In this document: piece after piece, positions 39,751 through 43,249 of the stretch
Layout of the letters: each line of letters begins with the position of its first letter
Position numbering within the stretch: position 1 is the stretch's first letter
Source of the DNA: Escherichia coli
Lineage (GTDB): Bacteria > Pseudomonadota > Gammaproteobacteria > Enterobacterales > Enterobacteriaceae
NCBI RefSeq assembly: GCF_044324875.1
Contig: NZ_CP172185.1
Length of the DNA: 64,000 bases
Strand: one strand, 5' to 3'
Notes under the pieces: generated by a model
Seen by the model: only the letters and a program-made list of their open reading frames with translations
What the model was told of the DNA's origin: nothing
Database searches by the model: none
Program-made: the position numbers and the translations under genes

Positions 39751-40039
39751 ATGCAACAAAAAATGATTCAATTTAGTGGCGATGTCTCACTGCCAGCCAT
39801 AGGGCAGGGAACATGGTATATGGGCGAAGATGCCAGTCAGCGCAAAACAGAAGTAGCTGCACTACGCGCGGGCATTGAACTCGGTTTAACCCTCATTGAT
39901 ACCGCCGAAATGTATGCCGATGGTGGTGCCGAAAAGGTGGTTGGGGAAGCATTAACCGGTCTGCGAGAGAAGGTCTTTCTCGTCTCTAAAGTCTATCCGT
40001 GGAATGCTGGCGGGCAAAAAGCGATAAATGCATGCGAAG
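39751..40039 (+). pseudogene. yeaE: yeaE 5' fragment (aldo-keto reductase, codons 1-96), interrupted by the IS21-family insertion
   Basis: ATG 39751 (MQQKMIQFSGDVSLPAIGQGTWYMGED...NAGGQKAINACE) then IS sequence; the reading frame resumes at 42683 with ASLRRLNTDYLDLYLLHW.... Confidence 0.85.
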
Positions 40040-40165
40040 TGCAAAATGGCATCTGAATCGATCGCAGTTTGGCATTCGAATCGATCATGATTTGGCATCC
40101 ATCTCCGATCACAGTTTGGCATCACAATCGATCACGATTTGGCATGCTTCCGATCATTGATTGGC
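40040..40165 (+). repeat. Left-end multiple terminal repeats of the IS21-family element (5-6 tandem copies of about 22 bp, each with a GATC)
   Basis: Tandem units gatcgcagtttggcattc / gatcatgatttggcatcc / gatcacagtttggcatca / gatcacgatttggcatgc / gatcattgattggcatcc seen in sequence. Confidence 0.65.
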
Positions 40166-40241
40166 ATCCTGCCAGTCACTCCGGGAATTAACTCTTTTCA
40201 CCACAGTCTCCATTGCCGTGTTTAAACCAGTGGAGACGTCA

Positions 40242-41807
40242 ATGTCCAGAAAGAGAAAATCCAGGAGCACTATGGAAACCTGTTTTAAGATCCTTCAGCT
40301 CAAGTTCGACAAGAAGCTGACTAACCGTTGTATCGGACTGACGTTACACATCAGCGCCTCAACCGTTTTTGAGGTTCTTGCCCGCTTCAAAGCCTCTTCT
40401 CTGTCATGGCCATTACCTGCTGATATATCCCATGACACGCTGGAGAAACTCATTTTTCCGCCCAAAGACACCTTTGCATCAGAGCTTGTAATGCCTGACA
40501 TGTTGTACTTCGATACGGAAATGAGAAAACCAGGTGTGACGCGGCAACTGTTGTGGATGGAATACAAGGCACAGGCGGGTAACAAAGCGATGGGATACTC
40601 GCACTTCTGCCGTTGCTACCGGGAGTGGAAAAAAACGCGACGTCTCTCCATGCGCCAGGAGCATCGTGCCGGCGAAAAGCTTTTTATCGACTTCTGTGGT
40701 CCTACGGTTCCTGTTATTAATCCGGACACCGGTGAGATACGCCGCGTGGCAATCTTCGTGGCCGTAATGGGGGCGTCCAACTATACCTACGTTGAAGCGT
40801 GCGAAGGTCAGGACATGATGTCATGGTTAAATGCCCACAGCCGTTGCCTGACCTTCCTGGGCGGCGTACCGAAGCTGCTCATCCCCGATAACCTCAGAAG
40901 CGCAGTGAAAAAGGCCGATCGATATGAGCCTGTCATCAACGACAGTTATCAGGCACTGGCTGAGCACTATGGCACGGTTATCATCCCGGCCCGACCACGC
41001 AAACCTAAAGATAAACCAAAAGCAGAAAACGGCGTCCTCATCGTTGAACGATGGCTTCTTGCCCGCATCCGTAATGAAACCTTCCACACGCTCAGGGCGC
41101 TGAATGCGCGCCTTAGGGAGTTACTGACAGACATGAATAACCGGCCAATGAAGGGGTACGGCAATCAAACCCGTGCAGAACGCTTCCGCATACTGGATGC
41201 GCCAGCACTCTCTCCGCTGCCTCTGGCACCTTATGAATACACGGAATACAAAGCTGTGAAGGTTGGCCCTGACTACCACGTTGAATATGCCCGTCACTGG
41301 TACTCCGTTCCACACGAACTGGTCGGTCAGCGTCTGTCACTGAAGGCGGGGCAGTCGGTGGTACAGCTCTGGCACAAGGGGCAGTGTGTGGCGCAACATC
41401 CGCGCAGCACACATGAATATAAACACACAACCAATCCGCTTCACATGCCAGAGCGCCACCGGCAGCACGGGACATGGACACCGGAACGCCTGATCGAGCA
41501 GGGAAAACGTACGGGCCCGTCCACAGGCCGGGTGGTTGAATCCATGCTGAAGGCAAAACCCCATCCGGAACTGGCTTATCGTGCAGTTCTGGGGCTGCTG
41601 GCACTTCAGAAAAAATACGGCCCGGAACGGCTGGAAAAGGCCTGTTACGTTGCCCTGCACTATAACGCCCCTGACAGACGCTTTATCGACAATCTGCTGC
41701 GTCACCATCGGGAGAACCTGGAGCTTCCATTATCCCGCCAGGGCGAACAACATCCGGCATATGCTTCAGAGCATGAAAACCTGCGTGGTCCGGGCTACTA
41801 CCACTGA
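40242..41807 (+). CDS. istA: IS21-family transposase IstA
   Basis: ORF 40161-41807; start placed at MSRKRKSRSTMETCFKILQLK... (HTH N-terminus followed by a DDE integrase core). Confidence 0.88.
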   Translation: MSRKRKSRSTMETCFKILQLKFDKKLTNRCIGLTLHISASTVFEVLARFKASSLSWPLPADISHDTLEKLIFPPKDTFASELVMPDMLYFDTEMRKPGVTRQLLWMEYKAQAGNKAMGYSHFCRCYREWKKTRRLSMRQEHRAGEKLFIDFCGPTVPVINPDTGEIRRVAIFVAVMGASNYTYVEACEGQDMMSWLNAHSRCLTFLGGVPKLLIPDNLRSAVKKADRYEPVINDSYQALAEHYGTVIIPARPRKPKDKPKAENGVLIVERWLLARIRNETFHTLRALNARLRELLTDMNNRPMKGYGNQTRAERFRILDAPALSPLPLAPYEYTEYKAVKVGPDYHVEYARHWYSVPHELVGQRLSLKAGQSVVQLWHKGQCVAQHPRSTHEYKHTTNPLHMPERHRQHGTWTPERLIEQGKRTGPSTGRVVESMLKAKPHPELAYRAVLGLLALQKKYGPERLEKACYVALHYNAPDRRFIDNLLRHHRENLELPLSRQGEQHPAYASEHENLRGPGYYH

Positions 41808-41823
41808 CAGAAGGAACAACAGT

Positions 41824-42579
41824 ATGAGTGATAACCTGTTAAACAAACTGACCCAACTGAAACTCCCGGCGATGGCCGGGAGCCTGATACGGCAGCGGGA
41901 AACGCCTCAGACCTACGACGAACTGTCGTTCGAGGAAAGGCTGACGCTGCTGGTTGATGACGAGCTTCTGAGCAGGGAAAACAGCCGTGTGGCACGGTTG
42001 AGAAAAAATGCCGGCCTGAAATACCAGGCAACACCGGAAGGGCTGCGCTATCCGGCCTCAAGAGGTCTGCGGGCTGAACAGATGAGAGAACTGCTGAACG
42101 GCCACTACATAACCCACAGGAAAAACCTGCTGATAACCGGTCCGACAGGATGTGGCAAGAGCTGGATAGCCAATGCGCTGGGCGAACAGGCATGTCGACA
42201 GAAACACAGCGTCCGGTACTGTAGAACCGGGCGATTACTGGAACAACTGGCTCAGGGACGTGTTGATGGCAGCTGGCTGAAATATCTGAAACAGTTGCAA
42301 AAAATACAGGTTCTAATCCTGGACGATCTGGGGCTGGAACAGTTAAGTAACGCCCAGTGTAATGACCTTCTGGAGCTCATAGAGGATCGTTACGGACAAA
42401 GCAGCACGATAGTGGTAAGCCAGTTCCCGGTAGATAAATGGCATGGTCTGATGGAGAACCCAACAACAGCAGATGCCATCCTGGACAGACTGGTACATAA
42501 CTCACACCGAGTGGTCCTTCAGGGAGAGTCACTGAGGAAAAATCCCCCGGTAGTGGAAAGCAGCGAAAAAACGCGTTAA
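41824..42579 (+). CDS. istB: IS21-family ATP-binding helper protein IstB
   Basis: Start ATG 41824 (MSDNLLNKLTQLKLPAM...) after an AGGAA-type RBS; Walker A (GPTGCGKS) and Walker B (LILDDLG). Confidence 0.88.
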   Translation: MSDNLLNKLTQLKLPAMAGSLIRQRETPQTYDELSFEERLTLLVDDELLSRENSRVARLRKNAGLKYQATPEGLRYPASRGLRAEQMRELLNGHYITHRKNLLITGPTGCGKSWIANALGEQACRQKHSVRYCRTGRLLEQLAQGRVDGSWLKYLKQLQKIQVLILDDLGLEQLSNAQCNDLLELIEDRYGQSSTIVVSQFPVDKWHGLMENPTTADAILDRLVHNSHRVVLQGESLRKNPPVVESSEKTR

Positions 42580-42678
42580 AAAGCGGTAGAAAAAGTTAAG
42601 TTCCCGGTTGATCGAATGGATGCGAATCGCTGATCGGACTTCGATGCCAATCCGTGATCGAATAGAGCGGAATACGCA

Positions 42679-43249
42679 CGAAGCCAGTTTACGCCGTCTC
42701 AATACTGATTATCTCGATCTCTACTTATTACACTGGTCTGGCAGTTTCGCTCTCGAAGAGACTGTCGCAGCGATGGAAAAATTGATCGCCCAGGGCAAAA
42801 TCCGCCGCTGGGGCGTTTCTAACCTTGATTATGCCGATATGCAGGAACTCTGGCAGCTGCCGGGGGGGAATCAGTGTGCCACTAATCAGGTGCTTTACCA
42901 TCTCGGTTCACGAGGGATTGAGTACGATCTACTTCCCTGGTGCCAGAAACAGCAGATGCCGGTGATGGCTTACAGTCCGTTAGCTCAGGCCGGGCGGTTG
43001 CGCAATGGGCTGCTAAAAAACGCAGTAGTCAACGAAATTGCACATGCTCACAATATCAGCGCGGCACAAGTATTGTTAGCGTGGGTAATCAGCCATCAGG
43101 GTGTGATGGCGATTCCAAAAGCGGCCACGATTGCCCATGTCCAACAAAATGCGGCTGTGCTTGAGGTTGAATTTTCGTCAGCGGAATTAGCTATGCTGGA
43201 TAAGGCATATCCGGCACCAAAAGGAAAAACTGCGCTGGATATGGTGTGA
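42679..43249 (+). pseudogene. yeaE: yeaE 3' fragment (aldo-keto reductase C-terminal part)
   Basis: In-frame continuation ASLRRLNTDYLDLYLLHWSGSFALEETVAAMEKLIAQGKIRRWGVSNL... ending at 43249. Confidence 0.85.

Follow-up and report, generated by a model that had tools for sequence, protein, structure and literature searches.

The array of GATC-bearing direct repeats at 40040-40165 forms the left end of an intact, already catalogued ISSso4-type insertion sequence of the IS21 family, which interrupts the yeaE gene in the analysed window, i.e., the whole 64-kb stretch of E. coli DNA. The array very probably represents the multiple terminal repeats of this element, serving as binding sites for its transposase, IstA. 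Repeated ends of this kind are a known feature of a known element and are ordinary for the IS21 family. For annotation purposes the outcome is routine: an evidently active ISSso4-type element in yeaE, with the ends expected of its family. The comparison of related elements presented below adds the observation that the end architecture of the IS408/ISSso4 branch is very regular, with a period of about 23 bp (21-25 bp).

Element Boundaries and Insertion Site

The element starts with TGCAAAA and ends with ACGCA, and the pentanucleotide CGAAG stands on both of its sides (Table 1); hence, the TG...CA termini and the target duplication (TSD) of 4-8 bp that characterize IS21-family insertions are both present. 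When the flanks were joined through a single CGAAG, the rebuilt empty site (401 nt) was 100% identical to intact yeaE of some E. coli genomes, and it was found in 5,420 of 5,426 E. coli genomes. The 5-bp TSD and the 100%-identical empty site establish that the repeats are DNA of the element and not of the host, and they leave no room for an insertion boundary lying elsewhere, which the first-pass annotation had still allowed for. Its placement of the repeats inside an IS21-family element is borne out by the same two observations and by the NCBIfam matches of the IstA and IstB proteins. Several hallmarks of the family were recovered: IstA, the adjacent IstB, TG...CA ends, a short TSD, and multiple direct repeats of approximately 23 bp. 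The host gene yeaE, encoding methylglyoxal reductase, is split by the element into two parts (39751-40039 and 42679-43249), and its function in this strain is presumably lost. A search of the element and its flanks against Rfam (E <= 1) gave zero matches.

Although five direct repeats of about 22 bp with GATC superficially resemble iterons, the notion that they are plasmid-type iterons, belong to the host or replicon in some other way, or arose by chance can be set aside with near certainty, as it is contradicted by the TSD and the empty site: the repeats begin at the first base past the TSD, are absent from the empty yeaE site of 5,420 genomes, accompany the element wherever it sits among many unrelated locations, and have inverted copies at the opposite end.

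Many E. coli chromosomes and plasmids harbour full-length copies with 99.8-100% identity, whose alignments end at query position 2639-2641. In 225 genomes, some place matches 80% or more of the element's length; up to 23 places per genome match it, many of them with 100% identity. The IstB of the 100%-identical copies bears the NCBI name "ISSso4 family", and copies with 96-98% identity have an IstA called "ISSso4 family transposase"; the ISSso4 assignment used here follows these annotation names. Because of the 99.8-100% identical copies, the ISSso4 annotation, and the presence of up to 23 places per genome, the element is considered catalogued and evidently active at present.

Architecture of the Two Ends

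The left array extends from 40040 to 40167 and consists of the half-unit TGCAAAATGGCAT followed by five units of the form CGATC-N4-(T/A)TTGGCAT (equivalent to GATC-N5-TTGGCAT), set apart by 5-7 variable bases. The unit had originally been described as GATC-N6-TTTGGCAT, with five to six copies on the left; the GATC-bearing unit stands, the spacing has to be corrected to N5, and the count resolves into five full units, a half-unit, and a degenerate sixth block with AGTC in place of GATC. GATC is kept at the position of this degenerate block (40173-40192) in the Yersinia ruckeri homologue. Scanning of the 64-kb window with the pattern GATCNNNNNTTGGCAT, allowing at most one mismatch, returned seven matches, every one in the two element ends. 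Chance expectation was 1.72 matches, and seven were reached in 0 of 100 shuffles, which confirms the presence of the array. The five exact matches on the plus strand, at 40060, 40083, 40107, 40130, and 40152, are spaced by 23, 24, 23, and 22 bp, while the two on the minus strand are located at 42620-42635 (one mismatch) and 42644-42659. Tandem Repeats Finder reported a period of 23 and 4.3 copies for the left array, and a repeat finder recovered inverted repeats between left-end and right-end units. When a weight matrix was derived from the seven units, they scored 22.7-30.2 bits, a circular result as these are its source sequences; elsewhere in the window the score did not exceed 12.7 bits, showing that the window is without further copies.

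The right end (42595-42678) has a 13-bp terminus, followed inward by two full inverted units and a third block with GATC; the "one to two" inverted copies noted previously were thus correct in orientation and too low in number. In an alternative register, TTGGCAT-N5-7-CGATC, six left units and three right units may be counted. Eight of the 13 GATC sites of the element lie in the approximately 200 bp that make up the two ends, and five of these end sites fall within 100 bp at a phasing of 22-24 bp. A second inverted-repeat block, CCGGGAATTAAC / CCGGGAACTTAAC, was noticed at 40181-40192 and 42595-42606; it is conserved in the homologues with 82-96% identity and could be an accessory protein site. 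Inspection of the units and the inner block by eye for sigma-54 and IHF consensus sequences gave nothing convincing.

Table 1. Positions of the insertion sequence, its terminal repeats, and its genes in the window.
Feature	Coordinates	Strand	Basis
Complete IS21-family (ISSso4-type) insertion sequence, 2,639 bp, 5'-TG...CA-3' termini	40040-42678	+	100%-identical full-length copies, TSD, empty site
Left TSD copy CGAAG, yeaE sequence	40035-40039	.	Identical 5-mer at 42679-42683
Right TSD copy CGAAG	42679-42683	.	
Left terminal half-unit TGCAAAATGGCAT: cleaved terminus and first TGGCAT block	40040-40052	+	Relatives begin TGC(A/G)TATTCCGG there
Left repeat unit 1, CGATCGCAGTTTGGCAT	40059-40075	+	Pattern scan, weight matrix
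Left repeat unit 2, CGATCATGATTTGGCAT	40082-40098	+	Pattern scan, weight matrix
Left repeat unit 3, CGATCACAGTTTGGCAT	40106-40122	+	Pattern scan, weight matrix
Left repeat unit 4, CGATCACGATTTGGCAT	40129-40145	+	Pattern scan, weight matrix
Left repeat unit 5, CGATCATTGATTGGCAT	40151-40167	+	Pattern scan, weight matrix
Degenerate sixth, innermost left block CAGTCACTCCGGGAATTAAC, AGTC replacing GATC	40173-40192	+	Inverted match to right inner block
RNA hairpin, 3' arm bears the istA GGAG Shine-Dalgarno	40206-40237	+	-24.4 kcal/mol, z -2.4
istA transposase gene, 521 aa from ATG 40242	40242-41807	+	NF033546, Pfam, IS5376 IstA homology
istB helper AAA+ ATPase gene, 251 aa	41824-42579	+	NF038214
Right inner block, minus-strand CGATCAACCGGGAACTTAAC, third right-end GATC	42595-42614	-	Conserved in L001 and L002
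Right repeat unit 2, minus-strand CGATCAGCGATTCGCAT, one mismatch	42620-42636	-	Pattern scan, weight matrix
Right repeat unit 1, minus-strand CGATCACGGATTGGCAT	42644-42660	-	Pattern scan, weight matrix
Right terminal half-unit, minus-strand TGCGTATTCCGCT	42666-42678	-	Matches clade-wide terminus TGCGTATTCCGG

Transposition Genes and the istA Leader

The IstA protein matches the NCBIfam model NF033546 (transpos_IS21) with 284.6 bits, at a cut-off of 160, and contains the Pfam domains rve and Mu-transpos_C_2. Database IstA proteins are 511 aa long and start at the ATG at 40272. Residues 85-383 align to IstA of IS5376 (structures 8b4h and 8q4d; E 8e-14); since the alignment is confined to this segment, the first helix-turn-helix (HTH) domain is assigned only via the NCBIfam IS21 model, which spans residues 19-327. 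The start of istB lies 17 bp past the istA stop, and its product matches NF038214 (IS21_help_AAA) with 257.8 bits, at a cut-off of 200.

The hairpin preceding istA has the arms GTCTCCATTGCC...CCAGTGGAGAC, which are conserved in the homologues L001-L003, with consistent base changes in those from Enterobacter and Yersinia. Sequestration of the Shine-Dalgarno sequence by a hairpin is a device used by other insertion sequences against read-through expression. The function of the hairpin described here is inferred, and it may likewise block the translation of read-through transcripts.

Conservation of the Ends among Relatives

Three close homologues of the element are a copy on an E. albertii plasmid (96% DNA identity), a copy on an Enterobacter plasmid (82%), and a fragment from Yersinia ruckeri (82%). 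All three keep the CGATC and TTGGCA blocks unchanged but vary in the spacers and in the four bases between the blocks, and the number of units is 4 to 5. About 100 IstA relatives with an overall identity of 35-90% were collected, including 80 genome loci (43-53%), eight intermediate loci (52-73%), and 17 plasmid loci (37-52%), the latter taking in IS408, ISBmu3, ISEc12, ISAs29, and IS1491. A direct array with a period of about 23 bp was present in all of the relatives retaining enough upstream sequence (about 100 examined). The units start 21-25 bp apart, most commonly exactly 23, some at 24 and a few at 21-22, and the left end has about 3-9 direct units, against 1-3 inverted ones at the opposite end. 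The elements mostly span 2.5-2.7 kb (two are of approximately 3.0 and 3.1 kb), and their terminus is TGC(A/G)TATTCCGG-like. Hence, the units are conserved well beyond the identical copies, a point on which the first-pass annotation had made its reading depend. The largest array in this set, with nine consecutive GATC units on the left, belongs to an element from a Citrobacter freundii complex contig (L086, approximately 1250-1470; 56% IstA identity).

In overall end architecture, terminus, and length (about 2.5-2.7 kb) the window element resembles the IS408/ISEc12/IS1491/ISAs29/ISSoEn3 group, whose IstA proteins have about 510-520 aa, and it shares the GATC in each unit with IS408, ISBmu3, and ISEc12. 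It differs from the IS408 group in the second block, which in the ISSso4 lineage is TTTGGCAT, changed from an ATTCCGG-like sequence. Many relatives (L009, L023, L097, L099, and others) carry 1-4 inverted units between the direct left array and istA, in contrast to the window element, which has none there.

The recognition-core tetramer is uniform within an element but differs between lineages, with at least eight cores observed: GATC, GAAC, GACC, GGCC, GGAC, TGCC, GGGC, and GAGC. Two Vibrio sister elements, L005 and L011 (100% bootstrap on the IstA tree), have GATC versus GAAC in every unit, the inverted ones included. Such concerted switching of core bases between close relatives provides a convenient natural series for studying the co-evolution of IstA specificity with its sites.

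Proposed Role of the Repeats in Transposition

The terminal inverted repeats of IS21-family elements are composed of the direct repeats L1/L2 and R1/R2 bound by IstA (PMC10122671), and the excess of left over right units found here matches these published ends, in keeping with the original description of the asymmetric multiple-repeat layout as typical of the family. Integration of IS5376 requires two complete repeats per end; an IstA tetramer joins the two ends, its catalytic subunits occupying the outer repeat and its structural subunits the second one (PMC10122671). In the cryo-EM structure each repeat is bound by one IstA, whose HTH-2 and HTH-1 domains read the blocks CS1 and CS2 in the major groove, and the 23-bp spacing of the repeats suits a negatively supercoiled synapse (PMC10122671).

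For the window element, the binding of IstA, the number of protomers involved, and the function of the additional units are inferred by analogy with this system. The unit of about 23 bp comprises two conserved blocks, CGATC(A) and TTGGCAT, about one helical turn apart. As suggested by the homology to IS5376 IstA, the two N-terminal HTH domains of one IstA protomer would read both blocks via the major groove. A tetramer of IstA would then synapse the outermost two units of each of the two ends, with cleavage at the terminal CA; IstB would next deliver the target, and integration would generate the 5-bp duplication. The inner left units, L3 to L6, would be accessory sites, most likely raising local IstA occupancy, marking left versus right, or holding IstA inactive or repressing istA, a role which may be likened to that of the multiple sites at Mu and Tn7 ends.

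The likeness to IS21 and IS5376, with their L1/L2(/L3) and R1/R2 repeats, extends to the presence of both IstA and IstB, the TG...CA termini, the 5-bp duplication, and direct repeats at about 23-bp spacing in each end, with two blocks one turn apart and more units on the istA-proximal left side. The block sequences, CGATC and TTGGCAT, are different from those of IS21 and IS5376, and IstA is about 120 aa longer than that of IS5376 (521 versus approximately 400 aa). The numbers also differ, as there are five to six left and three right units here and two per end in the IS5376 structure; the sufficiency of two repeats per end in IS5376 does not account for five to six on the left of the window element. 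Several transposase sites per end, unequal left and right ends, and an AAA+ helper (MuB, TnsC) are likewise found in phage Mu and Tn7, where only the outer sites bound by MuA or TnsB enter the core synaptic tetramer, as proposed here. Nevertheless, Mu and Tn7 represent other families with other site sequences and spacing, and Mu adds an enhancer and host factors.

The placement of the extra units solely on the left is compatible with left/right discrimination, an increased local concentration of IstA, or autoregulation, as far as the arrangement of the sites can tell. The inner units L3 to L6 could also be chiefly an operator, through which IstA represses its own transcription or translation or autoinhibits the end, rather than taking part in synapsis. 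We consider this possible, though rather unlikely. Across the whole clade the extra units are restricted to the end from which transcription of istA proceeds, just upstream of the istA start (3-9 left versus 1-3 right), and inverted units have been added between the array and istA in many relatives. Moreover, IS5376 needs only two repeats per end, and multiple repeats have been suggested to help in autoinhibiting IstA until IstB arrives (PMC11208146). On the other hand, the window element is devoid of inverted inner units, and no promoter that could be occluded was detected in the left end: the search for sigma-70 promoters revealed none at the consensus threshold in the left end (39950-40350), nor in the right end. 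As there is no recognisable sigma-70 istA promoter in or near the array, a regulatory role of the inner units is conjectural.

It had also been proposed that such ends can form reactive junctions in tandem elements, and this received no support. Among 5,426 complete E. coli genomes there was no abutted right-left junction (the query was covered at a single place, of 542 bp and not abutted), and no sigma-70 promoter was recognised at the consensus threshold across modelled right-left junctions with 0-8 bp spacers, the best match being 7/12. The absence of junctions from the genomes carries little weight, because such junctions are expected to be transient.

GATC Sites and Dam Methylation

As an addition to the reading of the repeats as IstA sites, the occurrence of GATC in the recognition block of every unit raised the question, marked as speculative in the first-pass annotation, of whether Dam methylation modulates IstA binding. 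Transposition might be promoted or prevented while the DNA just behind the replication fork is still hemimethylated, as in IS10 and IS50, or alternatively, SeqA might sequester the phased cluster of hemimethylated GATCs. We regard modulation by Dam as a tentative and rather unlikely proposition. Methylation could matter, because N6-methyl groups project into the major groove, by way of which the homologous transposase contacts the block holding the GATCs (PMC10122671). The number and phasing of the GATCs in the two ends described above are in line with this idea, and so is the invariance of GATC down to about 55% IstA identity (L086 and L087), at which the other block has drifted from TTTGGCAT to ATTCCG(A/G)T. 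Precedents are provided by Tn10 and Tn5. IS10 (Tn10) and IS50 (Tn5) resemble the window element in having GATC inside a transposase-binding end (predicted here) and a host that methylates this sequence. Their dependence on dam has been shown experimentally and involves one or two GATCs, one of them over the -10 of the transposase promoter; by contrast, there are eight GATCs here, none in a recognisable promoter, and the link to Dam is hypothetical.

The distribution of cores among hosts is ambiguous in this respect. In the first 91 loci, GATC cores appeared exclusive to hosts of the Dam clade, the Dam/SeqA/MutH orders (12/8 versus 1/36 genus-by-core entries, GATC/other), an impression overturned by the sampling of isolate plasmids, which revealed GATC cores in IS408, ISBmu3, a Ralstonia element, Legionella, and ISEc12. 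Among isolates, GATC cores account for 11/19 entries in Dam-clade orders versus 3/24 elsewhere (genus-by-core; Fisher p = 0.003, uncorrected for phylogeny), and Legionella, one of the three GATC entries outside the Dam clade, also methylates GATC; in Legionella longbeachae 97-99.5% of GATCs are methylated. However, GATC is only one of at least eight lineage-specific cores. It is equally kept in every unit of IS408, ISBmu3 (Burkholderia), and a Ralstonia element, and in the methylome papers on the Burkholderia cepacia complex and R. solanacearum, which report no methylation of GATC, the motif comes up solely for comparison with E. coli. Conversely, relatives with other cores reside in Dam-clade hosts (Vibrio L011, Photobacterium L006/L007, Aeromonas, Citrobacter, Klebsiella, and Yokenella), and the Vibrio sisters L005 and L011 switched between GATC and GAAC in all units. 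The GATC state changes 10-12 times on the neighbour-joining IstA tree. The independent origins in identified hosts (about three methylating versus one non-methylating) are too few for a test. No GATC overlaps a recognisable istA promoter, and the element is evidently active in Dam+ E. coli. Since GATC is present in the IS408-group elements of Burkholderia and Ralstonia and the cores are so varied, the comparison does not demonstrate Dam control, and the conservation of GATC in every unit is explicable without Dam-related selection. Within the literature library that was searched, no paper connecting IS21-family elements with Dam or GATC was found.

A more specific proposal, that in GATC-methylating hosts the phased array couples the element to the replication fork, with either IstA binding productively in one methylation state only or SeqA transiently sequestering the hemimethylated sites, is doubtful. 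If true, the element would provide the first case of methylation gating in the IS21 family, and the recurrence of GATC in Enterobacterales/Vibrionales/Alteromonadales, ISEc12/Algibacillus, and Legionella would reflect selection. If binding were gated by Dam or SeqA, replication-coupled control of transposition would reach into a family by which rearrangements of resistance plasmids are spread among Enterobacterales.

Variant and Residual Element Tips

Two further observations concern the extreme tips. On the Enterobacter plasmid CP057783 (L002), 6-7 tandem copies of the terminal 8 bp, GTGCAAAA/GTACAAAA, adjoin the left terminus of the element with 82% identity (approximately 420-475); this terminus reads TA, not TG, and the repeats represent a micro-expansion of the IS tip. 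E. coli F-type plasmids (hits H39-H45) carry lone, unannotated pieces of 33-57 bp, each matching the outermost left or right tip of the window element with 100% identity; they are probably leftovers of truncated copies.
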